The translations under genes and the position numbers were made by a program. From the IMG/VR virus record IMGVR_UViG_3300027956_000006: a stretch of 64,000 nucleotides of DNA. One strand, 5' to 3'. Under the pieces are notes generated by a model. It searched no databases and was not told the DNA's origin. It saw nothing but the letters and a program-made list of their open reading frames with translations. Below are positions 7,829 to 63,727 of the stretch, piece after piece (position 1 is the first letter of the stretch; the number at the start of each line of letters is the position of its first letter). Source of the DNA: a virus.

Positions 7829-8365
7829 ATGAAAAAAATAGTTGCAATGATATTAGGGTTTATAATGGTATTAATTCAATTTGTTTATGCTGATACCATA
7901 GTTTTAAACAACGGTAATGTTTTAGAATGTAATATTGAATTAATTGATACCACAGTAATTAAGGCGTATATTGTGATAGATGGAAAAGCTACAAATTGTG
8001 AAATAACTATACCTTTAAATGAAATAAAGTCATATGAGGATAATAAAGAATATGAAGATATTGCATATGCGCCATTAACAGTTGAGGAAAAAATAGTAGC
8101 AAGAAACAATTTTGAAAAACGCATGGAAGAAATAAAAACAGATGTTATGACAAAACAATCCTTAGAATATAATTATGCAATTGAAAAAATGAAATATGAA
8201 ACTTTATGGGCACAAAGCTTTTTAGTAGCTGAACACAATAAACCAATAAACCATACAAGTGTATTATTAAAAAATAATATTACTTCAACATCGTTTTCAG
8301 ATCTGGATAATACACAAGGTAAAAATATAAAAACAATTAATGATAGTATGGTGACATTACATTAA
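7829..8365 (+). CDS. secreted protein (N-terminal signal peptide), unknown function
   Basis: MKKIVAMILGFIMVLIQFVYA hydrophobic leader; RBS AAGGAG upstream. Confidence 0.4.
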   Translation: MKKIVAMILGFIMVLIQFVYADTIVLNNGNVLECNIELIDTTVIKAYIVIDGKATNCEITIPLNEIKSYEDNKEYEDIAYAPLTVEEKIVARNNFEKRMEEIKTDVMTKQSLEYNYAIEKMKYETLWAQSFLVAEHNKPINHTSVLLKNNITSTSFSDLDNTQGKNIKTINDSMVTLH

Positions 8366-35040: not shown

Positions 35041-38000
35041 ATGGATTCTTATGAAAATCAATTTATTTATGTTGATGGTTATTATGAAAAATCTTCCGGT
35101 CATGCTACTCCCTGGAAAAGAATTAAAATCTCTGAAATACCTAATTTAAAGAAAAAAGCAGAAAATTTCAACGTTTTTGTTACAGCACAACAATTCTGTT
35201 CACCACAAAGAGTAGAAGAGGAGTTACTTTGGGGGCCTTTATACTTTGATTTAGATGCTTCCGAACAATATCCTATTGAAATAGCAAAAGAAGATGCGCG
35301 TAAACTGGTTGATTTTTTTGTGAAAGGCCATGGTATCAACCACGAGTATGTACGTAGTTATTATTCCATTATTGGTGACACACCTGTATTAATTAAGCAA
35401 AATAATGGTAAGGTCAGATTAATTAGCATACAACAAGTTGTTGAAGAATTTAAAAGAACAAAAAATCTAAAAGTTTATTCTTTAGATCCTACTACAAAAA
35501 AATCTAAATTTTGTAATATATATGATACATTATCACACAAAGAACATGTTATTAATGTTTATCACGAATGTTCAAATTTACCACTTATTATTACTAATGA
35601 TCATTCTGTATATGTTGTTAATGAGAATTTAGAATTAATAGTTAAAAAGGGTAACGAATTACAACGTAATGATTATTTAGTAACATTTAATTCATTAGAT
35701 TATGATTTTGGCAATAATAATGCAAAACGCCCTAATTATACTATATCTTATAAGAATAAATCAATAAAAATTAATAATGATATTGCTAAATTTATAGGAT
35801 TTTTTGTTAGTGAAGGTCATATCTCTACTGATCAACAGAAATATTGTCGATTTTGTGGTAATGTTGGATTGTCTCGTATTGGAATAGGATTTTCATTTCA
35901 TTGTAAAGAAAAAGAATATATCGAATTTATTATAAAAACAGCAAAACAATATTTTAATTTACAAGCACATTCCCATACCTCTAATAATTGTACACAGATA
36001 TTATTTCATTCGCGTGAATTAGCTATTTTAATGGAGCAACTATGTGGAAAAGGTGCAATTAATAAACATTTTCCTGATGAATTTTTAAGTTATAGAAAAA
36101 ATATTCAAATGGCGCTTTTAGAAGGATATTTAGATGGAGATGGACATTATGATAATTATAGAAATAGATATGGTACTACGATATCAAAAATATTAGCAGA
36201 ACAATTAGTTTGGTTAGGGAAATCATTGGGTTTTTCTTCGACAATCCGTGTTGGTAATTATGACATGACACACAATAGACATTCTCATCTTTCTTATCGT
36301 ATTAGTTTTAAAAAACAAAAATTTACAAAATTTGCACCAGCACCAAGAGATTTATTATTACCAGTTAAACCACTAGGCAATGTTTATAGACAATGTTGTC
36401 CAATATTTCAACAAAAAAATAAACGTGTATTTCGCACATTTTTTCTTCAAAAAAATAGATTAAATAAGCAACAAATATATAAAATTATTCGACTTTTAGA
36501 TCGTTATAAAACAAAAGAATTTGATATATTAAGTAAATCTATTATTACGTCCTATAAACAATTCTTTCAAAATAATCTTTCTGTATTACCAATTACAAAA
36601 ATAATTAAAACAAAAAAGAAAGAAATGGTATATGATTTATCGGTTGATCAAAATGAGAATTTTTTTGGTGGTTCATACCCAATTTTATTACACAATTCTG
36701 GGTCCAAAGGATTCCATGTCTTTGTGCATCCAAATGTCTTAAATGTGCATCCAGACGCAAAATTACATCATATTTTCAAGTCTATAGCACTGTATTTAGA
36801 GCAGCTTTTAGAACTTAAGACGCTAGATACAGCTTCTATTTATTCAAAACGTCGTATGATGCGGCTACCAGACTCTTTACATCAAAAATCTAAGCTTTTT
36901 AAGATAGAATTGCAACATAATGAATTAAATAAGACTATTGAAGAAATACGTGATCTTGCTAAACAGCCAAGAGGTAGCTTATGGCCTGAGGAAGAATTTG
37001 GTAATATCTTACCTGTAGATGATGCGGCCATATTTTATAAGCATTTTGTTGACCTCTATAAGCAGCAAGAAATGATTGAGAAACTTAAGCCTCAAGTTTT
37101 GATACGTAAAACAGGTGAAACTGCTACTTGTGTTAAAGATTTACTTGAAAAGCATATACGTAAAAATGGAACCCGTAATTTAGCTACTATGAATTTAGCT
37201 ACATATTTCAAGGATCAAGGGTTTAATGAAAAAGAGACAATTGATGTTTTACTTCCTTGGGCGTTACGCACACCAAAAGAATTCACTTCTACAAAAGATG
37301 CATCTAAATTGAAAGCATCTACAATTTCATGTATAAAGTCTGTTTTTGGAAGTGATTATCATTTTGTTTGCAGTGTTATGCGTTCTCTTGGAGAAATTGC
37401 ATGTGATTTTGAACATTGTGAAATTGCCAATGAAGAAGATCAAAAACCAGAGAAAGAGATTATATTACATTTATCTGAAGCCTCTAATGCATGTTATATA
37501 AGAAAGAAAATAAAATCCAAAGTGCTAGTGGCAGGTAAAGATACTTCTCCATATTTAGTACCAAGACGTATTAAAATGGTCTGTGTTCCAGATTTAAAGC
37601 AGGAAGATAGTAAATGTAAAGAATGTAAGATGGCAAAACACGGTGGTAATTTTGAATTTGAACTAAATGAACATGATGCTTTATTATTAGAGTGTATCCA
37701 ATGTTCTACAACACAACAAATTAATGTTTTAAGACGTTTAACTGAAACAACTAAATGCAATAAACCAAAGCTTTCGATCCTTGATACAGGCAATGTTGAG
37801 GAATTAGAGATTACTCCAGAAATAGATAAGCAGGTTAATATGGCTGCGGAAGGTAGTGAAGAATATGTTACGCGTAAAGCATATTATATTGGACATAACA
37901 TGCCTTTAAATCAAGAAGTTGAAATATCATGTTATACATATGCTGACCCTAAAACGCAACATGCGGTTCATTTATTTAGTGATTTTTCTTCTGCGGAAAC

Positions 38001-39444
38001 ATCTTTGAATAGTTTTAAAATGGATCCACATAAAGTAAAGGAATTGTCTATTTTCAAACCAAAAAACAATCAAACCATTGATCAGAAAATTCTAGAGATT
38101 CATAAAGATCTTGAGTTAAATGTACATCATATTTGGCAACGTGCACCATTGTTTATTGCTTTTGATCTTGTGTATCACTCAGTTTTAAACTTTTATTTTC
38201 AAGGAGATATTTTACGTAAAGGGTGGTCAGAGTTACTTGTAATTGGTGATTCTGGACAAGCAAAAACGGCTGCGGCACAAAAAATATCCCAGCATTATGG
38301 ATTTGGATATCGTATTTCTGGTGAGGGTGCGCGCAGAACAGGTTTGGCGTATACTTGGCATCAAACTGCTAATCGTTGGTCTGTTTCTTTCGGTGTGATA
38401 CCAAGAAATGATAAGCGTATTGTTTTTATAGATGAGGCCGGTGGTATTGATGATGAAGAATTATCTAAATTGACAGATATGCGTTCTGAAGGTATAGCTG
38501 ATGCAAGAGGTGGCCCGATACCAGCACGTACACATGCTCGTACACGTTTAATTTGGATGACTAATACAAAAACAGGGGCGCCGTTAAATGAATACCCTTA
38601 CCCAGTTACAGCTATACAACAAGTTTTTAGACGTACAGAAGATATAAGAAGGTTCGATTTAGCAATAGCCGTACGTTCTGGTGATGTATCTGATGCTATG
38701 ATACACCAATTAATTTCACAACGTGATAAAGTGGAGCACATATACACATCTTATTTATGCAGAAATCTGATTTTATGGGCATGGACGCGTAAAGTTGATC
38801 AAATTATTATTAAACCAGATGCGGAGCAAGCTATCCTTGAAACTGCAATGCATATGTCTCAGAAATATTCTTCTTTAATACCTCTTGTTGAGCCATCAGA
38901 TCAGCGTAATAAGATAGCACGTTTAAGTGTGGCGATAGCGGCAAGGCTTTTTTCGACTGACGAACAAGGCGAACATATTATTGTTTTATCTGAACATGTA
39001 CATTTTGTACGTGATTTTTTACAAGAACAGTATGATGGTCGTGCATTAGATTATTATAATTATAGTCAATTAAATAAAAGGGAGTTTATAGAGTCTGAAT
39101 TTGAAACGATTAAGAATGAATTTATGCACTTACCAGAGTATAAGTTATTAGCAAGTGCTTTAGTAAAAATGCCTTTTTTCAGAAAAACCATCTTGGAAGA
39201 ATTAGTAGGATATGATAAAGATGATATGCGGAGAACGATTAAGATTTTACATGTGCATAATCTTATGAAAGCTACTTCACATGGATTTAAACTAACTGCA
39301 GCAGGTATTAATTTTTTAAAACGTTTATTAACAACACAAGAACTAGTTAATGCTGGGACTGTGGTAACTATTGAAAATGTACCAATCATAAAAGATACCC
39401 AAGAATATATGAATACGGATGATATTTTTGCTGAAGGTAACTAA
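35041..39444 (+). CDS. bifunctional DNA primase (AEP/prim-pol type) - P-loop helicase, interrupted by an intein
   Basis: N-terminal LYFDLDA (acidic motif I) then intein; C-extein resumes SGSKGFHVFVH (AEP motif II); downstream LLVIGDSGQAKTAAAQ Walker A and VFIDEAGGIDDEE Walker B. Confidence 0.7.
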   Translation: MDSYENQFIYVDGYYEKSSGHATPWKRIKISEIPNLKKKAENFNVFVTAQQFCSPQRVEEELLWGPLYFDLDASEQYPIEIAKEDARKLVDFFVKGHGINHEYVRSYYSIIGDTPVLIKQNNGKVRLISIQQVVEEFKRTKNLKVYSLDPTTKKSKFCNIYDTLSHKEHVINVYHECSNLPLIITNDHSVYVVNENLELIVKKGNELQRNDYLVTFNSLDYDFGNNNAKRPNYTISYKNKSIKINNDIAKFIGFFVSEGHISTDQQKYCRFCGNVGLSRIGIGFSFHCKEKEYIEFIIKTAKQYFNLQAHSHTSNNCTQILFHSRELAILMEQLCGKGAINKHFPDEFLSYRKNIQMALLEGYLDGDGHYDNYRNRYGTTISKILAEQLVWLGKSLGFSSTIRVGNYDMTHNRHSHLSYRISFKKQKFTKFAPAPRDLLLPVKPLGNVYRQCCPIFQQKNKRVFRTFFLQKNRLNKQQIYKIIRLLDRYKTKEFDILSKSIITSYKQFFQNNLSVLPITKIIKTKKKEMVYDLSVDQNENFFGGSYPILLHNSGSKGFHVFVHPNVLNVHPDAKLHHIFKSIALYLEQLLELKTLDTASIYSKRRMMRLPDSLHQKSKLFKIELQHNELNKTIEEIRDLAKQPRGSLWPEEEFGNILPVDDAAIFYKHFVDLYKQQEMIEKLKPQVLIRKTGETATCVKDLLEKHIRKNGTRNLATMNLATYFKDQGFNEKETIDVLLPWALRTPKEFTSTKDASKLKASTISCIKSVFGSDYHFVCSVMRSLGEIACDFEHCEIANEEDQKPEKEIILHLSEASNACYIRKKIKSKVLVAGKDTSPYLVPRRIKMVCVPDLKQEDSKCKECKMAKHGGNFEFELNEHDALLLECIQCSTTQQINVLRRLTETTKCNKPKLSILDTGNVEELEITPEIDKQVNMAAEGSEEYVTRKAYYIGHNMPLNQEVEISCYTYADPKTQHAVHLFSDFSSAETSLNSFKMDPHKVKELSIFKPKNNQTIDQKILEIHKDLELNVHHIWQRAPLFIAFDLVYHSVLNFYFQGDILRKGWSELLVIGDSGQAKTAAAQKISQHYGFGYRISGEGARRTGLAYTWHQTANRWSVSFGVIPRNDKRIVFIDEAGGIDDEELSKLTDMRSEGIADARGGPIPARTHARTRLIWMTNTKTGAPLNEYPYPVTAIQQVFRRTEDIRRFDLAIAVRSGDVSDAMIHQLISQRDKVEHIYTSYLCRNLILWAWTRKVDQIIIKPDAEQAILETAMHMSQKYSSLIPLVEPSDQRNKIARLSVAIAARLFSTDEQGEHIIVLSEHVHFVRDFLQEQYDGRALDYYNYSQLNKREFIESEFETIKNEFMHLPEYKLLASALVKMPFFRKTILEELVGYDKDDMRRTIKILHVHNLMKATSHGFKLTAAGINFLKRLLTTQELVNAGTVVTIENVPIIKDTQEYMNTDDIFAEGN
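35365..36696 (+). mobile_element. intein (Ser1, LAGLIDADG type) inserted at the primase active-site motif
   Basis: Starts SIIGDTPVLI (block A), contains FIGFFVSEGHI and LLEGYLDGDGH LAGLIDADG blocks, ends ...ILLHN followed by Ser+1. Confidence 0.65.
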
Positions 39445-55579: not shown

Positions 55580-55607
55580 TTGACAAAATCATAATTTGTG
55601 TTATAAT
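55580..55607 (+). promoter_or_regulatory. sigma70-type promoter (TTGACA-16-TATAAT) preceding the ncRNA/tRNA island
   Basis: cTTGACAaaatcataatttgtgtTATAATata. Confidence 0.6.
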
Positions 55608-55917
55608 ATAAATATAGTAGAGATTTGATCTTTGATTTAAGAGGACTTAAGTTAAGAGTTCAGAATGTTTATATTAATTATAATGGAAACAGGTTAAATA
55701 ATTACTCCTTGTTCAAGGGGTGTTATTTATTAAACTCTTACTACTTCTCCTCTTTCTTATCGTATAAATTAATAACGGACTATGATAAAGAATACAGAAT
55801 GGTAAAAAGTCTGACTTTGAAATCAGAAAATGTACGTTCGAATCGTACCTTCCCCACCAATAAAAAAATATTGGGGAAGAAAAAAACAATTCTTTTCGCT
55901 TTTCCGTTATTTTAATT

Positions 55918-55989
55918 CGCAGGGTAGTGTAGGGGGAACACACTTGTCTCATACGCAAGAGAACAGTGGTTCAAATCCACTTCCTGCAA
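55918..55989 (+). tRNA. tRNA-Met (anticodon CAU); C1xA72 mismatch suggests initiator-like or Ile2/lysidine type
   Basis: Hand-folded cloverleaf: D stem GTGT/ACAC, anticodon stem CTTGT/GCAAG loop CTCATAC, T arm AGTGG-TTCAAAT-CCACT. Confidence 0.65.
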
Positions 55990-56049
55990 CAAATTTAATA
56001 GTATAAACAAACATGACTATAAAAGTTAGATTCGAACATAAGATGTATA

Positions 56050-56207
56050 AAAACCAAAGCCGTAAGCTTTGGCCCGCAGCCATTTTATGTTCGGGTAGCT
56101 TTAGGCCAGCGTTTGTTTCTACAGATAATATAACCGATTCACAGTAGAACGTAGCTGACAGATCTAGGACCTAAAGCTACCGACTACTAAAAAGAGTCGG
56201 TTTTTTT
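56050..56207 (+). ncRNA. structured ncRNA of unknown class ending in an intrinsic terminator (candidate Y-like / sRNA)
   Basis: Hairpins CCAAAGC-CGTAA-GCTTTGG and CCCG...CGGG; 14-bp helix GGTAGCTTTAGGCC / GGACCTAAAGCTACC with a bulged A enclosing 59 nt; ends with CCGACT-ACTAAAAAG-AGTCGG + T8. Confidence 0.45.
56179..56207 (+). terminator. Rho-independent terminator
   Basis: CCGACT(ACTAAAAAG)AGTCGG followed by TTTTTTT. Confidence 0.7.
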
Positions 56208-56213
56208 ATTTAT

Positions 56214-56286
56214 GCCGCTGTGGTCTACGGGTTAGGACGCGAGAATTTCACTCTCGCAAAGCGAGTTCGATCTCTCGCCAGCGGTG
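56214..56286 (+). tRNA. tRNA-Glu (UUC)
   Basis: Acceptor GCCGCTG/CAGCGGT, D stem GTCT/GGAC, anticodon stem GCGAGA/TCTCGC loop ATTTCAC, T arm GCGAG-TTCGATC(T)-CTCGC. Confidence 0.65.
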
Positions 56287-56294
56287 CTAGAATT

Positions 56295-56370
56295 GCCTCG
56301 TTAGCATAGTTTGGCTCAATGCGTTGGCTTGTCACGCCAAAGATCGGGGATTCAAATTCCCCACGGGGCG
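56295..56370 (+). tRNA. tRNA-Asp (GUC)
   Basis: Acceptor GCCTCGT/ACGGGGC, D stem GCAT/ATGC, anticodon stem TTGGC/GCCAA loop TTGTCAC, T arm GGGGA-TTCAAAT-TCCCC. Confidence 0.85.
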
Positions 56371-56379
56371 CTAAGAATT

Positions 56380-56636
56380 TAGTTAATGAACTAGCTACGG
56401 GTAAGCCTTAATGACTTATCTGAGGAAAGTCCAGGCTCTACATAGCAGCGTATCAAAGCTAACAACTTTGAGCAATCATAAAATTGACGATAAGAGGACA
56501 GAGACGAGAAAAATGAGACGACCAATCTCTACGCAGAGCAAGATCAAACAGAACCTGACCTGCTCGGTCGATAGGTTCGGGTAACGATCGCATAGACGGA
56601 TGGCTAGATAAACAAAACCTGGCTTATCATTAACTA
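56380..56636 (+). ncRNA. rnpB: RNase P RNA (compact, ~255 nt)
   Basis: P4 strands GAGGAAAGTCCAGGCTC (hallmark GGAAAGUCCGGGCUC) and ACAAAACCTGGCTTATC (ACAGAACCCGGCUUAUC) with compensatory CGG>CAG / CCG>CTG changes; P1 GTTAATGA / TCATTAAC closes the molecule; CATAGCAGCG after P4 matches CAUAGGGCA. Confidence 0.65.
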
Positions 56637-56646
56637 AATACTTTTT

Positions 56647-56732
56647 GGAGGGTATGTGCATGGTTAGATTGGCACGCCAGTTTGCTAAACTGGAAATCGA
56701 AAGAAACGCAGGAGCGTCACCTGCACCCTCCG
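56647..56732 (+). tRNA. tRNA-Ser (GCU), class II with long variable arm; atypical T loop
   Basis: Acceptor GGAGGGT/ACCCTCC perfect, D stem GTGC/GCAC, anticodon stem CCAGT/ACTGG loop TTGCTAA, 14-nt variable arm, T arm GCAGG-AGCGTCA-CCTGC. Confidence 0.55.
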
Positions 56733-56750
56733 CAAAAAAATTAAGAAAAA

Positions 56751-57434
56751 ATGAAAAAATATGTTTTATATAAAACAATCAATAAAATAAATAAGAAATT
56801 TTATATTGGTGCCCATATAACAGAGAATATTAATGATAATTACATAGGATCGGGATTATATTTATGTCAAGATATTAAAAAATACGGTAAAAATAATTTC
56901 AAAAAGATAGTTTTGAATTGTTTTAATTCGAAAGATGAATTATTATGTGCTGAAAAAAAATTATTGGACGCTAGGTACATAAAAAAGAATAAGCATCGAT
57001 TATATAATAGAAATGGTGGCGGGGCAGGATCGTGGATATATAATAATTATTTTTCTCCAAATAGAAAAGAACGATATAAAAGAATTTATATAAAATTCAA
57101 AAAATTGTTGCGCAATAGAGAATGGAGAAAGGAATTTTGTACAAAACTATCAATAGGACAGAAACAAGCTAGAGCTAAAGGCTTGTGTAAAGGATTTTTG
57201 AATAAAAAGCATACTAATAAATTTAAAAGGTTTATCGGTAAAATAAATGCAATTCAAAATAAAGGCAGAAATAATCCTCAATATAACAAAAAATGGATAT
57301 CGAATCTAAGATTTAAGAAATCTGTTCTTATTAAAAAAAACCTGATACAAGATTATTTAGCTCAAGGTTGGATAATTGGTAGAAGATTTAATGCTGGGTG
57401 TTTTGGGAAATTGGAAGAGTTGACGGAAGTATAG
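56751..57434 (+). CDS. GIY-YIG homing endonuclease
   Basis: N-terminal YVLYKTINKINKKFYIGA (GIY...YIG) ; basic C-terminal DNA-binding region; located between tRNA/ncRNA genes. Confidence 0.7.
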   Translation: MKKYVLYKTINKINKKFYIGAHITENINDNYIGSGLYLCQDIKKYGKNNFKKIVLNCFNSKDELLCAEKKLLDARYIKKNKHRLYNRNGGGAGSWIYNNYFSPNRKERYKRIYIKFKKLLRNREWRKEFCTKLSIGQKQARAKGLCKGFLNKKHTNKFKRFIGKINAIQNKGRNNPQYNKKWISNLRFKKSVLIKKNLIQDYLAQGWIIGRRFNAGCFGKLEELTEV

Positions 57435-57599
57435 AGATCCGACTTGTCTTGAAAACAGGTAACCGTTAATTACGGCATGTAGGGGCAGAACCTACCTCTT
57501 CCGCAAGATAGGAGCTTAAGCTAACAGCAAACTGTCGGTCTCCAAAACCGAATTTACTGGGGCGGAACCAGTAGCTCCTGCAATTGGTGAAAAAAGTTA

Positions 57600-57628
57600 C
57601 TGACAAATTAATTAATTATGCTATAATA
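57600..57628 (+). promoter_or_regulatory. sigma70-type promoter (CTGACA-17-TATAAT) driving downstream tRNA cluster
   Basis: aCTGACAaattaattaattatgcTATAATatat. Confidence 0.55.
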
Positions 57629-57637
57629 TATATAATT

Positions 57638-57711
57638 GGCACTATGGCTGAGTGGTCGAAAGCGATTGTCTGCAAAACAATTTATCAAGAGTTCAAATCT
57701 CTTTAGTGCCT
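57638..57711 (+). tRNA. tRNA-Cys (GCA)
   Basis: Acceptor GGCACTA/TAGTGCC, anticodon stem ATTGT/ACAAT loop CTGCAAA, T arm AAGAG-TTCAAAT-CTCTT. Confidence 0.75.
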
Positions 57712-57715
57712 CAAC

Positions 57716-57794
57716 GAGTCCGATGTCGACTGGTCAGACACTTGCCTTTTAAGCAAGCGCATTTTGCAAGCGAGTTCGATTCTCGCCGGGCTCA
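57716..57794 (+). tRNA. tRNA-like with UUU anticodon (Lys?) and anomalous 12-nt variable region
   Basis: Acceptor GAGTCCG/CGGGCTC, D stem TGTC/GACA, anticodon stem CTTGC/GCAAG loop CTTTTAA, T arm GCGAG-TTCGATT-CTCGC; 79 nt. Confidence 0.45.
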
Positions 57795-57801
57795 CTAGTT
57801 C

Positions 57802-57873
57802 GGGCGTATAGCAAAATGATAATGCAGTTGGCTCTTAACCAGCATATTGGAGGTTTGAGTCCTCCTACGCCCA
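57802..57873 (+). tRNA. tRNA-Lys (CUU)
   Basis: Acceptor GGGCGTA/TACGCCC, anticodon stem GTTGG/CCAGC loop CTCTTAA, T arm GGAGG-TTTGAGT-CCTCC. Confidence 0.7.
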
Positions 57874-57992
57874 CATTATTGCTCCGGAAGACAAGGTGCG
57901 AATCCTTATATATAACAGCTTGCGGTGAAGGCGCCAACCAACCCAAAAGCGACATTATATTAGTGTAATTTTAGCACACCGGGGTTTTAAAT

Positions 57993-58063
57993 TACAGTGT
58001 CCTCTAACGATAGGAGAATGGGCTTTGAACCCGTCAATGAAGGTTTGATTCCTTCCGCTGTAG
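57993..58063 (+). tRNA. tRNA-Gln (UUG)
   Basis: Acceptor TACAGTG/CGCTGTA, anticodon stem ATGGG/CCCGT loop CTTTGAA, T arm GAAGG-TTTGATT-CCTTC; weak 3-bp D stem. Confidence 0.5.
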
Positions 58064-58491
58064 CTAAAATGGAGATGATATGACTGTTGAAGAAAAGAAA
58101 TTAATTGATGATATGACACAATACGAATTATGTCATAGATGGAGATTTGCTAAAATTGGAGATCCTTTATTCCAAGGAGATACTGGTGAATATTATAGTA
58201 AAATTTTAAAAGAAAAAGGTGGTTTTACACCAGAAATTTCAAAACAATTAGGGTGGTTTTAAATGAAAGTCAAAAATTATTTAGGATGGTTGCAAGATAT
58301 GGAGCATTATCGTGAGGGGTATACTTGGCATTATTATATAAATAAAGAAAAAAGTATTTGTGGAAAAAGCAAACATCCTACACAACAATGGAATGCTGCA
58401 TATATGAGAGGTAGAACCTGTAAAAAATGCTTAAACTATTGTAAAAAAAATAAATTAGAAGTTATATAATATCTTATAGAGTATATTAAAT

Positions 58492-58562
58492 TGCGAAGTC
58501 GACTAATGGTAGGCCGCAACGCTCTGAACGTTGAAATCAAGTTTCGATTACTTGCTTCGCAG
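58492..58562 (+). tRNA. tRNA-Gln (CUG)
   Basis: Acceptor TGCGAAG/CTTCGCA, anticodon stem CAACG/CGTTG loop CTCTGAA, T arm CAAGT-TTCGATT-ACTTG; imperfect D stem. Confidence 0.5.
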
Positions 58563-58576
58563 CTAGAAAGGTAATA

Positions 58577-59905
58577 ATGAAAAATAAAATATTTGAGTTG
58601 TTTAAAGATTTTGAGATATTTCTTGTTGGCGGTTCAGTAAGAGATAAACTCTTGAATATAGAAACTAACGATTTAGATTTCGCTACTAGCGCAACCCCAG
58701 ATCAATCTAAAGCAATACTCGAAGCTGCTGGGTATCATCCGCATACTGTTGGATGGGCATTTGGCACAGTTGGTATTGTAAATGATCAATATGAGGTACA
58801 TATTACGACATATCGTAAGGCTGAAGATTATCAGCGCGATAATCGAAACCCGACAGTTGAATGGGGAAAAACTATTCAAGAAGATCTTATAAGACGTGAT
58901 TTTACCATTAATGCACTAGCACAAAATAGCACCGGCGAGATCATAGATTTATTTAATGGAGTACAACATCTTAAAGATAAGTTACTTGTTACACCGATCG
59001 ATGCGAATATAGCGTTTAATGATGATCCTTTAAGGATGTTACGAGCTGTAAGATTTAAGGCAAGACTTGGTTTTGAATATAGCACAAATGTACAAGAAGC
59101 TTTATATAGACAAGCACATCGTTTATTAATTCTTCCAAAAGAAAGGATCCAAGAAGAATTAAATAAGATTTTAATGACAGATAATGCGGCAGATGCATTA
59201 CATGATTTATATCAATTTAGATTACTAGATTATATAATTCCTGAATTAAAGATGTTAAGTAAGATCGAGCAAGACAGTATTTACCATTCAAAAAATGCAT
59301 TATTACATACCATAGAGGTATTGCGTAATACTTCAAAAGATATAATCTTAAGATATGCCGCAATCTTTCACGACTTGGGTAAAATGGTAACCCGGTCTGT
59401 AGAAAATGGTAATGTCCATTTTTATCATCACGAGAATATTTCGGCGCTTATGACATATCCAATTCTACAAAGATTAGGTTTACCAAAACGCTGGTGTAAA
59501 GATATTACATATCTAGTGAGAAATCATATGCGTGCTAATACCTATGAAAAAGACTGGTCAGATAGTGCAGTAAGACGTTTTATACGTGATACTGGTGAAT
59601 ATTGCGATAGACTTTTAGTACTTAGTAGAGCTGATATCACTAGTCATAACCCAATTACTGTGCAGAAGCATCTCGATTCTTTAAATGATTTTGAAAGACG
59701 TATTAATGAATTAAGAAATTTTAAAGAATTAAAATGCCCAATAAGTGGTTTAGTTATTATGGAATTCTTTGATTTACCAGCCTGCAAGAAAGTTGGTGAA
59801 ATAAAAGAGTTGATTCTGAATGCTATCATTAATGGTGAATTAAAAATTGAAGACAGTGAAGAAGTAATATTAGAATATGCGAAACGCAAGATGGAGATAA
59901 AATAA
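58577..59905 (+). CDS. cca: tRNA nucleotidyltransferase (CCA-adding enzyme), class II with HD domain
   Basis: FLVGGSVRDKLLN...NDLDFAT head-domain motif, RDFTINAL, ERI..EL, and HD motif AAIFHDLGK. Confidence 0.85.
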   Translation: MKNKIFELFKDFEIFLVGGSVRDKLLNIETNDLDFATSATPDQSKAILEAAGYHPHTVGWAFGTVGIVNDQYEVHITTYRKAEDYQRDNRNPTVEWGKTIQEDLIRRDFTINALAQNSTGEIIDLFNGVQHLKDKLLVTPIDANIAFNDDPLRMLRAVRFKARLGFEYSTNVQEALYRQAHRLLILPKERIQEELNKILMTDNAADALHDLYQFRLLDYIIPELKMLSKIEQDSIYHSKNALLHTIEVLRNTSKDIILRYAAIFHDLGKMVTRSVENGNVHFYHHENISALMTYPILQRLGLPKRWCKDITYLVRNHMRANTYEKDWSDSAVRRFIRDTGEYCDRLLVLSRADITSHNPITVQKHLDSLNDFERRINELRNFKELKCPISGLVIMEFFDLPACKKVGEIKELILNAIINGELKIEDSEEVILEYAKRKMEIK

Positions 59906-60222
59906 TGTTAGAAATTAATAAAAAATTAGGAAGAGAATAGAGCATACATATGCAATATTTATTAACAGAAGAAGAATATTTAAAATTGGAAAGAAACCCA
60001 GATAAAGATAAGACTGAATCTCTTTTAAATGATTTACGTACTAAAGTTTTAACATTAGCTAATTTTAAATGTCTGCATCAAATTACAGACGTAGATTATG
60101 AAAAAGGATTAAATGTTGATGAGGGTTATTGTGATAATTGTCCATTAAGTTTTTGTAAAAATGAAAACCTTAAAATGAAACATTATCTATGTGGTTGTGA
60201 TACTTTATATTCTAAATAAACA

Positions 60223-60298
60223 CAGTGCGTGGGCCAACTTGGATTAGGTCGCCTGGCCTGGAACCAGGAGGTTGAAGGTTCAAATCCTTCCGTGCTGA
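60223..60298 (+). tRNA. tRNA-Pro (UGG)
   Basis: Acceptor CAGTGCG/CGTGCTG (two GU), D stem GGCC/GGTC, anticodon stem CCTGG/CCAGG loop CCTGGAA, T arm GAAGG-TTCAAAT-CCTTC. Confidence 0.65.
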
Positions 60299-60303
60299 CT
60301 TTC

Positions 60304-60347
60304 GGAGTAGTTAAGTACATTAAAAGAGTTCGCGACTCTCTACTCCA
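60304..60347 (+). ncRNA. tRNA-like minihelix / truncated tRNA (acceptor stem + T arm only)
   Basis: GGAGTAG...CTACTCC 7-bp acceptor-like stem enclosing AGAG-TTCGCGA-CTCT T-arm-like hairpin; no anticodon arm; 44 nt, immediately upstream of HNH gene. Confidence 0.4.
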
Positions 60348-60366
60348 CTAAAATATTTGAAAGGAG

Positions 60367-60882
60367 TTGATTAAGTTGAGAGTTTTAGTTTTAAATAGTT
60401 CGTATGAATTTCTTGGTTTTTGTGATTGGCAATCTGCCATTTGTGCTAAAGTATCCGGTAAGGTTTATGTTGAGGAAGAATATGAGCAGGAAGTAAGATC
60501 ACCTTCAACAACTATGCGTATTCCTGCCGTTATTAGATTACGTCATTATGTAAAAGTTACATATGAAAAAGTGATGTATGTTTCATATACTAAACGTAAT
60601 GTGCATCTAAGAGATAACTATACTTGTCAATATTGTCATACAAAACATGATGCTAGAAAATTAGGTATTGATCATGTATTACCTGAATCACGAGGGGGTT
60701 TAACAACTTGGGAAAATACCGTATCTTGTTGTCATGGATGTAATTTAGTGAAAGATAATAGAACACCTGAAGAAGCAAAAATGAAACTTATGCGTATTCC
60801 AACTAAACCTAGAGGGTTCAGAGAAATCATTAGGATTAAAATTGGTGAGTTACATGATCTTTGGGAAAAGTATTTATTTTAG
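60367..60882 (+). CDS. HNH homing endonuclease
   Basis: CQYCHTKHDARKLGIDHVLPESRGGLTTWENTVSCCHGCNLVKDN (HNH with Zn-binding Cys pairs); sits between tRNA genes. Confidence 0.75.
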   Translation: MIKLRVLVLNSSYEFLGFCDWQSAICAKVSGKVYVEEEYEQEVRSPSTTMRIPAVIRLRHYVKVTYEKVMYVSYTKRNVHLRDNYTCQYCHTKHDARKLGIDHVLPESRGGLTTWENTVSCCHGCNLVKDNRTPEEAKMKLMRIPTKPRGFREIIRIKIGELHDLWEKYLF

Positions 60883-60887
60883 AAATT

Positions 60888-60961
60888 GGTGGGTATCGTC
60901 TAGCGGTTAAGGATACAAGGTCGTGACCCTTGTGACACGAGTTCGAGTCTCGTTACTCACC
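60888..60961 (+). tRNA. tRNA-His (GUG) with G-1:C73
   Basis: Extra 5' G pairing with discriminator C, acceptor GTGGGTA/TACTCAC, anticodon stem CAAGG/CCTTG loop TCGTGAC, T arm ACGAG-TTCGAGT-CTCGT. Confidence 0.8.
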
Positions 60962-60970
60962 CTAAGATAT

Positions 60971-61053
60971 GCGTAGGTATCCAAATGATGAAGGGCGCAG
61001 TCTGTAAAACTGTTACATTCGAAACGTTGCAAGTTTGAATCTTGCCCTACGCA
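60971..61053 (+). tRNA. tRNA-Tyr (GUA), class II
   Basis: Acceptor GCGTAGG/CCTACGC perfect, anticodon stem GCAGT/ACTGT loop CTGTAAA, long variable arm, T arm GCAAG-TTTGAAT-CTTGC. Confidence 0.75.
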
Positions 61054-61066
61054 CTAATTTGAAAGG

Positions 61067-61543
61067 TTGAATATGAAAATTGGTATTATTGGTCATGGTG
61101 CAGATAAATTCACAGAAGTTAGTAGATTAAATGCAGCAGAATTAATTGCAGCTATTTTAAAAGATTATTGTGTACAATGTATTGAGAAAAGAGATTATGA
61201 TACAGGATTTGTTTCAGGACATTCACCTGTAGGTGGGGTTGATATATGGGGAGAAAAAATAGCAAAACTATTAGGTATTCCGTTAGAACTTAAGATACCT
61301 AAACAAAAATGTTGGGACGCAGAATACGGATTTAAACAACGTAATTTAGATATTGCAAGTTCTTCAGATATACTACATATAATTTTAGTAGATAAATACC
61401 CGAAAGATTATAAAGGTAGAAAGTTTAGTAAATGTTACCATTGTAATAGTTCTGATCATGTAAAGTCTGGAGCATGTTGGACAGCAAAAGAAGCTCGAAA
61501 ATTGAATAAAGAAGTTATATATCACATAATTAGAAATGAATAA
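61067..61543 (+). CDS. hypothetical protein with C-terminal CCHC zinc knuckle (possibly SLOG/LOG-like fold)
   Basis: KIGIIGHGADKF ... CYHCNSSDHVKSGAC. Confidence 0.3.
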   Translation: MNMKIGIIGHGADKFTEVSRLNAAELIAAILKDYCVQCIEKRDYDTGFVSGHSPVGGVDIWGEKIAKLLGIPLELKIPKQKCWDAEYGFKQRNLDIASSSDILHIILVDKYPKDYKGRKFSKCYHCNSSDHVKSGACWTAKEARKLNKEVIYHIIRNE

Positions 61544-61706
61544 ATTAATTAAAACCGAGTCTGGATGTGCTTATTGTCAGCAAAAAGGGTTTATTCATAT
61601 CCATACTGATATGCAAACATATGCTTTAAATGGTTTTGTAGATAATGAAGAAGCGATAAAAATGTTTAATATAGTATGTGAAAAAATAAAATATTTTAGA
61701 TATGAT

Positions 61707-61777
61707 GGGCAGGTCGTCTAATGGGAGGATTTCTGTTTTGCAAACAGAGGATAGGGATTCGAGTTCCCTCCAGTCCA
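61707..61777 (+). tRNA. tRNA-Ala (UGC)
   Basis: Acceptor GGGCAGG/CCAGTCC (one AxA mismatch), D stem GTCT/GGAT, anticodon stem TCTGT/ACAGA loop TTTGCAA, T arm AGGGA-TTCGAGT-TCCCT; 5' end overlaps stop of ORF 61536-61721. Confidence 0.6.
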
Positions 61778-61863
61778 CAAAAATTCGGCTCGTAGCGGAG
61801 ACGCAAGCATCAGATTAAGTCTGAAGTAGGTAGAGGTGGCGTACTACCGAGCTGACCAAAATG

Positions 61864-61934
61864 AGATATAGGTGTTGATGATTGCACACTACATTGCCAA
61901 TGTAGAAGAACGGGTTTAAATCCCGTATATCTCT
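61864..61934 (+). tRNA. tRNA-Gly (GCC)
   Basis: Acceptor GAGATAT/ATATCTC, D stem GTGT/ACAC, anticodon stem CTACA/TGTAG loop TTGCCAA, T arm ACGGG-TTTAAAT-CCCGT. Confidence 0.85.
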
Positions 61935-61951
61935 CTGTTCTTTTTAATATT

Positions 61952-62023
61952 GCCCGTCTAGTGATAACGTTAGCACAACGGTCCTGTAAACCGTGAGTCG
62001 CAGTTGAATTCTGCGGATGGGCT
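61952..62023 (+). tRNA. tRNA-Thr (UGU)
   Basis: Acceptor GCCCGTC/GATGGGC, anticodon stem ACGGT/ACCGT loop CCTGTAA, T arm CGCAG-TTGAATT-CTGCG. Confidence 0.7.
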
Positions 62024-62145
62024 CTAAATTTATATGATATCTGCAACGATACTAGTTAATGCAGAGCTGAAAACCAACTAAATGCTCAGGGAAACTCTCT
62101 AAGATAATTTAGAAGGATGCACCAAAGAGTTAGTTTATCATATTT

Positions 62146-62216
62146 GCCAGCATAGTTCAATGTTAGAATAAGGCTTTCGTAAAGCTTAGATTTGGGTTAA
62201 ATTCCCAGTGTTGGCT
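62146..62216 (+). tRNA. tRNA-Thr (CGU)
   Basis: Acceptor GCCAGCA/TGTTGGC, D stem GTTC/GAAT, anticodon stem AGGCT/AGCTT loop TTCGTAA, T arm TTGGG-TTAAATT-CCCAG. Confidence 0.65.
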
Positions 62217-62227
62217 TTAAAATTAAT

Positions 62228-62300
62228 GCCATTGTAGCTCAAGAGGAAGAGCGCTAACTTGGTAAGTTAGAGGTTGTCAGATCGTTACTGACCTTTGGCT
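62228..62300 (+). tRNA. tRNA-Thr (GGU)-like with two UxU mismatches in acceptor stem
   Basis: D arm GCTC-AAGAGGAA-GAGC, anticodon stem CTAAC/GTTAG loop TTGGTAA, T arm GTCAG-ATCGTTA-CTGAC; acceptor GCCATTG/CTTTGGC imperfect. Confidence 0.5.
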
Positions 62301-62321
62301 AAGTTATCAGGGCTGTGTAAT

Positions 62322-62393
62322 GCGTCTGAAGTGTTGGAGAGTGCACTACAGTTTTCCAAACTGTGAGAATGGGTTTAACTCCCATCAGACGCT
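62322..62393 (+). tRNA. tRNA-Gly (UCC)
   Basis: Acceptor GCGTCTG/CAGACGC, anticodon stem ACAGT/ACTGT loop TTTCCAA, T arm ATGGG-TTTAACT-CCCAT. Confidence 0.8.
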
Positions 62394-62410
62394 CTAATAA
62401 AAGGAGAATG

Positions 62411-62611
62411 AAAATGCAGAAGAAACCAAATTGTTACAAATGTGAATTTCGAGGTTCAATACCAGGTGATGCACATTCACAATGTCATAACATAAATGCA
62501 CATGTAGAAGGAGACGCTTATGGTAGACGATCTGGGTGGTTTTTCTGGCCAGTAAATTTTGATCCAGTATGGTTAGAATCGTGTGACGGATTTAAGGCAA
62601 TTAAAAAATAA
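62411..62611 (+). CDS. small Cys/His-rich protein (ORF track start 62363 lies inside tRNA-Gly; real start probably ATG 62411 after AAGGAG)
   Basis: RBS aaaggag 7 nt upstream of ATG; CYKCEF...HSQCHN...C motifs. Confidence 0.4.
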   Translation, partial: KMQKKPNCYKCEFRGSIPGDAHSQCHNINAHVEGDAYGRRSGWFFWPVNFDPVWLESCDGFKAIKK

Positions 62612-62620
62612 TGATATAAT

Positions 62621-62692
62621 GCCGGGTTAGCTGAGATAGATTAGCGCTGCGCTGAAGACGCGGAGAGGTCAGATCGATACTGACATCCGGCA
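62621..62692 (+). tRNA. tRNA-Phe (GAA)
   Basis: Acceptor GCCGGGT/ATCCGGC, D stem GCTG/TAGC, anticodon stem CTGCG/CGCGG loop CTGAAGA, T arm GTCAG-ATCGATA-CTGAC. Confidence 0.8.
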
Positions 62693-62702
62693 CAAAAAAA
62701 TA

Positions 62703-62730
62703 TTGACATTTGATAAGAATGTGATATAAT
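62703..62730 (+). promoter_or_regulatory. sigma70-type promoter (TTGACA-16-TATAAT)
   Basis: aTTGACAtttgataagaatgtgaTATAATata. Confidence 0.55.
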
Positions 62731-62751
62731 ATAAATGTTACAAAAAATGAT

Positions 62752-62826
62752 AGCTAGGTACCATAATGTTAATGGAACGAGCTGTTAACTCGTGATATGA
62801 AAGTTAGACTCTTTCCCTAGCTGCCA
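62752..62826 (+). tRNA. tRNA-Asn (GUU) with encoded CCA
   Basis: Acceptor AGCTAGG/CCTAGCT, D stem CCAT/ATGG, anticodon stem ACGAG/CTCGT loop CTGTTAA, T arm GAAAG-TTAGACT-CTTTC, then G-CCA. Confidence 0.85.
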
Positions 62827-62850
62827 ATATAGTTTGTTCTTTTAAAATTT

Positions 62851-63242
62851 GGGGACGATCAGGTTTCGATTTAAATAAATAAGCATGGATCGCACATCGC
62901 AGACGCAATGTTGGCTGCGTTAACAAACATTGCAAATCTAAACGCAGACGAAAATACCCGTTTGTTAGCTGAAGCAAATGCTATTGTAGCACATGTATTT
63001 GCCGATGCACCAGTCGTAGCTACAATATAGTTACGCACCTACTTATTTTGTGTAAGTAATAAGTAAGGTACGATATTACACTAGTTTTAATATTGTCTTG
63101 ATATTAAAATGAAACTAAAAGACTATGTGTGTATGAACATGTCTGTTTGTATGTACACAATGAAGATAAAACAATAGACTATATGTGTAGCATATTTATG
63201 TTTAATTATTTAAAGACCGCGGTTCAATTCCGCGCGTCTCCA
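62851..63242 (+). ncRNA. ssrA: tmRNA (SsrA) with unusually long tag reading frame
   Basis: 5' GGGGACGATCAGGTTTCGA (cf. GGGGCUGAUUCUGGAUUCGA), 3' T arm CGCGG-TTCAATT-CCGCG + CGTCTCC-A pairing with 5' GGGGACG; internal frame GCA GAC GAA AAT ACC ... ATA TAG (ADENTRLLAEANAIVAHVFADAPVVATI*) resembling ANDENYALAA start. Confidence 0.65.
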
Positions 63243-63250
63243 CAATATAT

Positions 63251-63325
63251 GTCTGGGTCGCCTAATTGGTAATGGCAACTGGTCTACACCCAGTAATAAT
63301 GAGTGTTCAAGTCACTCCCTAGACA
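63251..63325 (+). tRNA. tRNA-Val (UAC)
   Basis: Acceptor GTCTGGG/CCTAGAC, anticodon stem ACTGG/CCAGT loop TCTACAC, T arm GAGTG-TTCAAGT-CACTC. Confidence 0.7.
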
Positions 63326-63331
63326 CTAATT

Positions 63332-63421
63332 GGACGGTTAGTTTAAATGACAAAACCCACGGCTTATACCCGTGAAGCTCCCGATTAGAGCGCATTGTAG
63401 GTTTGAATCCTACACCGTCTA
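63332..63421 (+). tRNA. class II (long variable arm, 90 nt) tRNA with anticodon UAU
   Basis: Acceptor GGACGGT/ACCGTCT, D stem GTTT/AAAC, anticodon stem CACGG/CCGTG loop CTTATAC, variable arm GCTC-CCGATTA-GAGC, T arm GTAGG-TTTGAAT-CCTAC. Confidence 0.55.
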
Positions 63422-63431
63422 CTAAATATAT

Positions 63432-63553
63432 GGGTATGGTCTGTTATAAAGCAAAGCACAGACTTGAGCAAAGATAAACGGGATAAGCTCCGTAGAGGTA
63501 TGCTGACAGAATAGAGGTTGCTCTCTAAATGAGTGAAATTCTCATCATACCCG
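63432..63553 (+). ncRNA. 122-nt tRNA-like element (7-bp acceptor-like closing stem, D-like and T-like arms, ~50-nt insertion where anticodon arm should be)
   Basis: GGGTATG...CATACCC closing stem; GTCTGT/ACAGAC hairpin; ATGAG-TGAAATT-CTCAT hairpin; GAGCAA...TTGCTC long-range pairing. Confidence 0.35.
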
Positions 63554-63563
63554 CTAATTCATT

Positions 63564-63637
63564 CTCCGTGTGGCTGAGAGGTTAAGAGCGCAGAGCTGAT
63601 AACTCTGAGGACGTGTGTTCAATTCACACCGCGGAGA
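63564..63637 (+). tRNA. tRNA-Ile (GAU)
   Basis: Acceptor CTCCGTG/CGCGGAG, anticodon stem CAGAG/CTCTG loop CTGATAA, T arm GTGTG-TTCAATT-CACAC. Confidence 0.7.
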
Positions 63638-63643
63638 CTATTT

Positions 63644-63718
63644 GCCCCTGTCGCCTAATTGAAAATGGCATTTCGCTACGAACGAAAAATAATGCGCGTT
63701 TGAATCGCGCTGGGGGCA
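63644..63718 (+). tRNA. tRNA-Arg (ACG)
   Basis: Acceptor GCCCCTG/TGGGGGC, anticodon stem TTTCG/CGAAA loop CTACGAA, T arm GCGCG-TTTGAAT-CGCGC. Confidence 0.75.
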
Positions 63719-63727
63719 CTAAATACT

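Follow-up and report, generated by a model that had tools for sequence, protein, structure and literature searches.

A reduced type-A RNase P RNA within the tRNA gene array of a putative phage genome

A gene for the RNA of ribonuclease P (RNase P) is found on the plus strand of a 64,000-nucleotide (nt) stretch of viral DNA, IMG/VR virus record IMGVR_UViG_3300027956_000006, which is referred to here, at its full length, as the window. The RNA displays the fold of bacterial class A (type-A) RNase P RNAs in a reduced form and is located between two transfer RNA (tRNA) genes of an array that also contains a transfer-messenger RNA (tmRNA) gene and a gene encoding a CCA-adding enzyme. Homologues are found in related phages, and their sequence changes preserve the fold. 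The RNA is likely a functional phage-encoded catalytic RNase P RNA, a naturally minimised type-A form that would use the RnpA protein of the host to act on the phage tRNAs and tmRNA. An earlier note on this DNA, made from the nucleotide letters, had interpreted the segment as a reduced RNase P RNA, and the analysis reported here supports that interpretation.

Identity and anatomy of the RNA

The whole window was scanned against Rfam 15, which gave a full-length match (model positions 1-367) to RF00010, the model of bacterial RNase P class A, at window positions 56379-56641 of the plus strand, with 112.2 bits and an E-value of 1.7e-33. This score is above the curated gathering score of 100, so the covariance-model check proposed in the earlier note came out in favour of its reading. 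Class A was the best match within clan CL00002. The helices P5.1, P10.1, and P15.1 of class B (RF00011), which take the place of P13, P14, P16, and P17, have no sequence left from which to form, and P16 and P17 are present. Judged by Rfam's own threshold, the RNA belongs to bacterial class A.

The two strands of helix P4, GGAAAGTCCAGGCTC (56424-56438) and ACAAAACCTGGCTTATC (56612-56628), are located where the earlier note had placed them, and the compensatory change it had pointed out is confirmed, as the G-C pair G72-C355 of Escherichia coli is an A-U pair here. Both strings can be placed in a complete and consistent type-A structure, which is supported by covariation in six homologues, and a pattern with both P4 strands at the given spacing has one match in the window and none in 100 shuffles. 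Helix P1, for which eight base pairs had been proposed, instead has 11 in the Rfam alignment and 13 by inspection (56377-56389 with 56627-56639). The molecule is compact, as claimed, yet its length had to be corrected from ~255 nt to 259 nt with the 11-base-pair P1 or 263 nt with the 13-base-pair P1. The G+C content of the RNase P RNA is 41-42% versus ~29% for the window, and its minimum free energy (MFE) fold yields P1, P3, P5/P7, P8, and the P15-P17 arm (z = -2.5 against shuffles).

The RNA contains the P4 pseudoknot with its bulged U, helices P1, P2, P3, P5, P15, and P16/P17, a candidate P6, and the P7-P11 cruciform (Table 1), while P12 and the peripheral helices P13, P14, and P18 are missing, close to the earlier guess of P12, P13/14, and P18. 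In the Rfam alignment, the 79 model positions of P12-P14 are reduced to 11 nt and the 24 positions of P18 to none, and with P12 absent, the linker between J11/12 and J12/13 consists of 6 nt (56509-56514). The catalytic-core motif GAGGAAAGUCC is intact with A65, A66, and the bulged U69, as are the GCAA of J5/15, the ACARAA with the P4 3' strand, and the GGU of L15, and the T-loop-recognition strands J11/12 and J12/13 are kept. The RNA thus keeps the catalytic domain together with a minimal cruciform and the T-loop-recognition part of the specificity domain. In type-A RNAs, the lost helices make the tertiary contacts L13-P12, L14-P8, and L18-P8, which are impossible here because P12, P13, P14, and P18 are absent; the P12 helix itself is nearly universal among RNase P RNAs. 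Membership in class A stands despite the loss of P13, P14, and P18, since accepted members also lack them (PMC8172020).

The RNA resembles the type-A RNase P RNAs of E. coli (M1 RNA) and Thermotoga maritima in the order of P1-P11 and P15-P17, the P4 and P6 pseudoknots, the conserved regions CR-I to CR-V, and the GGU motif. However, it differs in being 259-263 rather than ~350-400 nt long, in the four missing helices, in an L9 that is not GNRA, and in being a gene of a phage tRNA array rather than a free-standing chromosomal gene. Its closest natural analogues are reduced RNAs of the candidate phyla radiation (CPR), as the RNase P RNAs of SRX3307784_bin_224 and ERX2165959_bin_53 lack the same P12, P13, P14, and P18 (Lui et al. 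2021, PMC8172020). In that study, the loss of P12 was termed 'highly unusual', with Mycoplasma fermentans and Thermoproteaceae as the only other known cases, and the GGU motif was also missing in two-thirds of the reduced CPR RNAs. Unlike these RNAs, each of which is the sole cellular rnpB, the window RNA keeps the GGU and is an accessory phage gene absent in sister phages. Like Min 1 and Micro P, two engineered RNAs, and the RNA of M. fermentans, given as 276 nt (Siegel et al. 1996, as cited in PMC8172020), it is small, has no P12, and is near the phylogenetic minimum core. Yet, the M. fermentans RNA is of type B and cellular, whereas the window RNA is of type A, shorter, and phage-borne, and Min 1 and Micro P were made in the laboratory, whereas the window RNA is natural.

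Conservation and selection of the fold in related phages

Six further family members were recovered through homologues of the CCA-adding enzyme and a pattern scan of metagenomes, and the identical RNA was found on contigs of several JGI and Logan samples. Five of the relatives exceed the gathering score of RF00010 (L022, 146.6; L006, 131.9; L072, 116.5; L073, 111.4; L078, 100.3 bits), while L086 is below it (79.5 bits). A structural alignment of six sequences was made by hand, with P4 and P6 entered as pseudoknots, and scored against the type-A structure. Standard pairs were found in 97.0% of the 465 pair cells, and 54 of the 84 pairs display changes on both sides. As a control, sliding the 3' partners by 1-3 columns left 28-38% of the cells paired, and none of 500 shuffles attained the observed values. 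Helices P7-P11 form 100% of their pairs in this alignment. Since the alignment had been fitted to the structure by hand, MAFFT and RNAalifold were additionally run on the raw sequences as an independent check, which recovered P1, P3, P4, P5, P7, P9, and P17, with 29 of 50 pairs compensatory. The fold is under purifying selection.

This covariation bears on whether the RNA could be a decaying pseudogene of a host rnpB that was picked up by chance, which would suit its large deletions compared to type A and its patchy distribution (see below). However, 97% of the pair cells are kept through the 54 compensatory pairs among phages whose CCA-adding enzymes are 59-75% identical, all core motifs are kept, and the deletions are clean removals of whole helices. 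The covariation essentially rules out the pseudogene reading, which is hardly credible.

P4 is nearly invariant in cellular RNase P RNAs. In the phage family, all eight of its pairs are kept in six of six homologues and five of the eight covary, with AAG(U)CCAGG/CCUGGCUU in the window, AAC(U)CCGGU/ACCGGGUU in L073, ACC(U)UCGGA/UCCGAGGU in L078, AAG(U)ACGGU/ACCGUCUU in L072, and AAG(U)CCACU/AGUGGCUU in L086, while A65, A66, and the bulged U are constant across these variants. The J11/12 strand ACAGAGACGAG and the (A/G)UGARACGA are conserved in six of the seven family members and lost in L086, where the whole J11/12-J12/13 module is swapped for a simple hairpin. The specificity domain forms a series, from a P12 of ~58 nt in L078 through a mini hairpin of three pairs in L072 to no P12 in the window, L073, L006, and L022. 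Such erosion with the catalytic domain kept, as seen from L078 through the window RNA to L086 and in other tRNA-array RNAs, resembles the type T RNA of Thermoproteaceae, an archaeal RNA with archaeal proteins that is described as having almost no specificity domain (Lai et al. 2010, as cited in PMC8172020). Unlike type T, the window RNA retains P7-P11 and the J11/12-J12/13 module.

Alternatively, the RNA may serve as a take-over decoy, i.e., a mimic of RNase P RNA that captures the RnpA of the host and starves or redirects the host enzyme, rather than acting mainly as a catalyst. The loss of the stabilising peripheral helices, the drift of the P4 sequence in L078, L073, L072, and L086, and the erosion of the specificity domain across the clade would all suit a decoy, as would the retention of the regions contacting RnpA (P3, the J18/2-like UAGA..AUG, and the P4 3' strand). 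Yet, a sponge needs no substrate-binding or catalytic elements, while the GGU of L15, J11/12, J12/13, GCAA, U69, A65, and A66 are conserved. In addition, the changes in P4 are strictly compensatory, so that its geometry is preserved, and the placement in a tRNA operon next to a CCA-adding enzyme suits a role in maturation. A decoy is therefore considered unlikely, and a catalytic RNase P RNA is preferred.

Genomic setting of the RNA

The 23 tRNAs of the array comprise 22 called by ARAGORN and one found by Rfam alone (62621-62692), and the phage tmRNA (62851-63245) scores 137.5 bits. As 6 nt and 7 nt separate it from its tRNA neighbours, the RNase P RNA has no room for a promoter of its own. 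A site with full consensus match to a sigma-70-type promoter is located upstream of the array (Table 1), while the total number of promoter-like sites in the window is not above chance. Encoded CCA is missing in 22 of the 23 tRNA genes, which mostly carry C-U-A or C-A-A right after the discriminator base; judged from its sequence, this may be a signal for 3' processing. Because the tRNA genes lack CCA, the CCA-adding enzyme is needed.

Table 1. Positions of the RNase P RNA, its structural elements, and neighbouring features in the window.
Feature	Position	Strand	Remarks
Promoter-like site	55580-55607	+	TTGACA-16(TG)-TATAAT; 12/12 sigma-70-type matches; upstream of the array; consensus match only
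RNA gene array	55918-63719	+	23 tRNAs, tmRNA, RNase P RNA; CCA-adding enzyme encoded inside
tRNA-Asp(gtc)	56295-56371	+	Discriminator base 6 nt before P1
RNase P RNA gene, reduced bacterial type A	56377-56639	+	RF00010 match; helix coordinates parsed from the Rfam alignment
P1, 5' strand	56377-56389	+	Partner 56627-56639; 13 perfect pairs; 11/13 covary in the family
P2, 5' strand	56390-56396	+	Partner 56602-56608; Rfam alignment; 5/7 pairs covary
P3 hairpin	56398-56422	+	Rfam alignment, structural alignment, MFE fold, RNAalifold
P4, 5' strand AAG(U)CCAGG, catalytic-core pseudoknot	56427-56435	+	Partner 56618-56625
P5, 5' strand	56436-56439	+	100% paired; 3' partners of P5/P7 in 56530-56538
J5/7	56440-56447	+	Last five bases are the 5' strand of candidate P6
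Candidate P6 pseudoknot	56443-56447 with L17 56561-56565	+	83% paired, one compensatory pair; weaker support
P7, 5' strand	56448-56452	+	100% paired
P8 and P9 hairpins, specificity domain	56453-56488	+	Covarying pairs: P8 5/6, P9 5/7
P10/P11 around J11/12 ACAGAGACGAG, 6-nt linker, and J12/13 GAGACGA	56489-56529	+	Site of the missing P12, P13, and P14
P15-P16-P17 arm	56542-56589	+	Covarying pairs: P15 4/4, P16 4/5
GGGUA in the P15/16 loop	56579-56583	+	GGU, the motif binding the tRNA 3'-CCA
Junction GCAUAGACGGAU in place of P18	56590-56601	+	Conserved UAGA..AUG kept
P4, 3' strand CCUGGCUU	56618-56625	+	Conserved ACAAAA just before (ACAGAA in E. coli)
Spurious 100-codon open reading frame	56476-56778	-	Antisense to the RNase P RNA and tRNA-Ser; skipped by the source's gene caller on L067
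tRNA-Ser(gct)	56647-56733	+	Starts 7 nt past P1
Homing endonuclease gene	56751-57434	+	phrog_314, E 1.8e-28; weakly similar at the DNA level to genes of seg-like and GIY-YIG endonucleases
CCA-adding enzyme (tRNA nucleotidyltransferase)	58577-59905	+	Inside the array

Relatives sharing the CCA-adding enzyme also share the gene order Met-Glu-Asp-(RNase P RNA)-Ser-Cys-Lys-Lys-Gln-Gln-(CCA-adding enzyme)-Pro-His-Tyr. The RNA is located directly 3' of tRNA-Asp or tRNA-Ser(gct) in L006, L072, L073, and L086, and in these four and L078 a tRNA-Ser begins 3-18 nt past it. In L022, exceptionally, the RNA is placed between tRNA-Leu and tRNA-Pro; every homologue has a tRNA 3-18 nt downstream. Phages with the RNA have CCA-adding enzymes that share 100, 75, 70, and 59% identity with that of the window. 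In contrast, the RNA was not found in L079 (67%), L085 (62%), or L046 (61%) within the corresponding interval and up to 10 kb on each side. Such patchy presence among close relatives is as expected for an accessory phage gene, as a cell could not lose its only rnpB. The interval between tRNA-Asp and tRNA-Cys varies accordingly: in the window, it holds the RNase P RNA, the tRNA-Ser, and the homing endonuclease gene (56640-57637), in L046 only a GIY-YIG-like open reading frame (8343-8733), and in L079 an endonuclease-like open reading frame with a tRNA-Ser and a tRNA-Trp (7548-8301). Homing endonucleases may thus contribute to gain or loss of the ribozyme. The minus-strand open reading frame dismissed as spurious in the earlier note is present and overlaps the RNA and tRNA-Ser, yet was not called on the identical contig L067.

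All long open reading frames of the window are on one strand. They encode a primase/MCM-type helicase with an intein (phrog_18685, E 9e-167) that is ~30% identical to the versions of cultured Bacillus and Microbacterium phages, and inteins with LAGLIDADG endonuclease domains are present in two genes, at 20659-22872 and 35041-39444, for a DNA methyltransferase and the primase/MCM-like helicase. Other phage-like genes encode an SNF2 helicase, DnaN, a clamp loader, an integrase, RtcB, and homing endonucleases of the HNH and GIY-YIG types. The window also encodes a protein of the mycobacteriophage Gp88 family, and many of its open reading frames have no family. Since the window is without virion genes, its phage identity is deduced from gene content and relatives. 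As for the RNase P RNA, it displays the features of an auxiliary phage gene for tRNA maturation, being located in a phage-like genome, present in some relatives but not in others, and surrounded by the genes for tRNAs, tmRNA, and the CCA-adding enzyme.

A cellular origin would make the RNA the own reduced rnpB of a small-genome bacterium, e.g., of the CPR (Patescibacteria). This would agree with the existence of CPR RNase P RNAs without P12, P13, P14, and P18 (PMC8172020) and with a window free of capsid, terminase, or tail genes. However, no gene for ribosomal RNA or a ribosomal protein was found within the 64-kb window, which instead combines strong PHROG matches, inteins, homing endonucleases, one coding strand, and the array of 23 tRNAs and a tmRNA. 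Moreover, the syntenic relative L046 is catalogued as a viral contig in IMG/VR, and syntenic relatives lack the RNA at the site and up to 10 kb on each side. A cellular origin is thus very unlikely.

Three further elements of the array region were observed. Between tRNA-Met and tRNA-Glu, an element is conserved in five phages (window 55990-56213; L046:7941-8186; L072:2730-3034; L073:8096-8334; L079:7144-7393), with a possible small open reading frame at a conserved ATG and, few nt 5' of tRNA-Glu, a long irregular hairpin (21 pairs, seven compensatory) followed by U7. This element could act in termination, attenuation, or processing, and it has a bearing on the choice of promoter for the RNase P RNA. 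The 310 nt from the consensus promoter to tRNA-Met (55608-55917) contain a terminator-like hairpin at 55703-55722, and a T-arm-like inverted repeat at 55832-55848, for which no tRNA was called, may be a degenerate or unconventional tRNA-like element. The tmRNA tag predicted by ARAGORN, ADENTRLLAEANAIVAHVFADAPVVATI, is unusually long and does not end in the ALAA type, and the tag of L046 is similar. Finally, L072, one of the relatives bearing the RNase P RNA, encodes an amber-suppressor tRNA (anticodon CUA) at L072:12946-13020, which hints at recoding of TAG.

Proposed function and wider occurrence

It is known that T4 tRNA precursors depend on host RNase P, that bacterial RnpA proteins function with heterologous type-A RNAs, and that the synthetic RNAs Min 1 and Micro P, whose minimal sets of helices are similar, show activity in vitro. 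From the homology, the selected fold, the position in the array, and the conservation in related phages, we infer catalytic activity, a host protein partner, a processing route, and a benefit for the phage. The RNase P RNA would be co-transcribed within a polycistronic tRNA transcript of the phage, from which a 3' cut behind tRNA-Asp would free its 5' side, while cleavage by RNase P at the 5' end of tRNA-Ser would make its 3' end. The released RNA could then assemble with the RnpA protein of the host, and the holoenzyme would trim the 5' leaders of roughly 30 tRNAs of the phage and of its tmRNA. In this way, tRNA maturation may be secured or boosted during infection, beside the CCA-adding enzyme and the RtcB ligase of the phage. 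The conserved GGU motif suggests that the substrates carry CCA when they are cleaved.

A parallel may be drawn to the theta (HDV-like) ribozymes found beside phage tRNAs, which were proposed to remove 3' trailers, while 5' maturation was treated as a function of the host (PMC10879173). Like these, the window RNA is a phage RNA catalyst, here a predicted one, beside tRNA genes, and both are proposed to lessen dependence on host RNases. Unlike the theta ribozymes, which are small and self-cleave in cis, it is homologous to an endonuclease that acts in trans on 5' leaders.

It could also be speculated that the ribozyme is active with a cofactor that is encoded by the phage or otherwise differs from RnpA, or with none, and that a phage protein offsets the missing helices. 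Most open reading frames of the window have no recognisable family, and losing the contacts of P12-P14 and P18 usually demands compensation by protein, as in archaeal and eukaryal RNase P. Yet, no protein gene consistently adjoins the RNA in the relatives, where only tRNAs and mobile endonucleases do, and the type-A regions touched by RnpA are conserved. Such a cofactor is hence quite unlikely compared to use of the host RnpA.

Several observations weigh against a functional enzyme assembled with host RnpA. The lost P12-P14 and P18 normally provide stabilising tertiary contacts, so activity in vivo may not follow from the sequence, and engineered equivalents, including the laboratory constructs Min 1 and Micro P, are unstable and need high salt (high ionic strength). 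A six-frame search of the 64-kb window and of 628 kb of retrieved loci revealed no RnpA-like RNR motif, and a Pfam scan of 40 open reading frames of the window had no match to the RnpA family. With no RnpA gene seen, the partner would have to come from the host. The RNA is also dispensable, being absent at the same site in the close relatives L079, L085, and L046. L086 lacks the T-loop-recognition module and some relatives alter normally invariant P4 bases, which could reflect relaxed or altered function. In addition, the extent of the transcription unit is uncertain, as the hairpin and U7 between tRNA-Met and tRNA-Glu could terminate transcription, and no virion gene (capsid, terminase, tail) was found within the 64-kb window.

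Compact RNase P-like RNAs are not limited to this family. The pattern of P4-P4 spacing identified 45 loci (L001-L045) with such RNAs, one from IMG/VR, 33 from metagenomes, and 11 from GTDB, and the 41 RNAs that could be delimited are 224-281 nt long. About half of the loci are in dense tRNA arrays, e.g., 29 tRNAs in 7.5 kb in L001 and 14 in 2.3 kb in L026. All 15 of the compact RNAs that were scored fall below the RF00010 threshold (52-91 bits), and no alignment to the model is possible for their specificity domains. The GTDB matches are scattered over single metagenome-assembled genomes of various phyla and one Pseudomonas isolate contig, organisms whose own rnpB should be of full size. Some of the compact RNAs are located on very large contigs (L011, 885 kb; L018, 697 kb; L027, 791 kb), the flanks of which are almost without Pfam families, with only a pilin N-methylation motif, an R2K ATP-grasp domain, and an Exo_endo_phos domain. 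These contigs could derive from giant phages, or from giant elements of another kind, instead of cells.

Among cultured phages, Microbacterium phage A3Wally (MZ150783.1, 195 kb) contains an unannotated RNase P-like RNA of ~215-220 nt at ~93852-94072 (L084:2850-3070), which occupies precisely the space from tRNA-Pro(ccg) to tRNA-Pro(cct) and scores 72 bits with RF00010 (E 7.5e-22), below the gathering score. A second Microbacterium phage, H39, has an RNase P-like match at 92049-92106. Within what looks like a broad collection of phage mini-RNase P RNAs missed by annotation, the window RNA would thus be the most canonical form. Whether phage RNase P ribozymes are widespread, forming a spectrum of ~215-315 nt in the tRNA arrays of large phages from near-canonical to sub-threshold with an unrecognisable specificity domain, and are the first viral ones, is a proposition with about even chances.

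Other searches yielded candidates that were rejected. The P4 5' strand of the window, GAGGAAAGTCCAGGC, has matches at 19 IMG/VR loci, all by chance, as none is accompanied by the P4 3' strand or an nhmmer profile match, and the two-strand pattern identified only L001 in IMG/VR, an RNA of a different family. When the window RNA and its homologue from L022 were compared by BLAST with 50,697 deposited phage genomes, no real match emerged, and the E. coli rnpB matched only records among the same genomes that resemble bacterial contamination. One full-size RNase P RNA match, within region 111323-119518 (L066) of 'Microcystis phage MaAM05' (MW495066.1), was rejected as a phage example; it is flanked by fabI, engB, mtgA, and glyS, and the region has the look of a bacterial chromosome, which suggests that the record is contaminated or misassembled.

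No report of a phage or virus RNase P RNA was found in the full-text literature searched, though most subscription journals lie outside that search and an earlier report is possible. A survey of huge phages (PMC7162821), an overview of jumbo phages (PMC7824862), and a 2026 review of jumbo phages (PMC13282480) do not mention RNase P RNA. The new aspect is the phage as genetic host and the site in a tRNA operon, while the RNA class itself is known.

RNase P RNA is among the few universal ribozymes and is treated as a cellular hallmark. If the proposed function is true, a virus-borne RNase P RNA would extend the translation toolkit of phages, which includes tRNAs, tmRNA, synthetases, the CCA-adding enzyme, and ligases, to the maturation of 5' ends. 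The stepwise losses, first of P12 and later of the T-loop-recognition module, together with the compensated changes in P4, provide natural minimal variants for probing what the catalytic core needs. Because their scores are below the Rfam cutoff, many related RNAs are invisible to standard annotation, yet A3Wally on Microbacterium foliorum is a culturable pair in which the question is directly testable. Finally, if such ribozymes are indeed widespread, they would represent a natural experiment on the minimal RNA for RNase P function, and phages would control tRNA maturation by using or hijacking the RnpA of their hosts.

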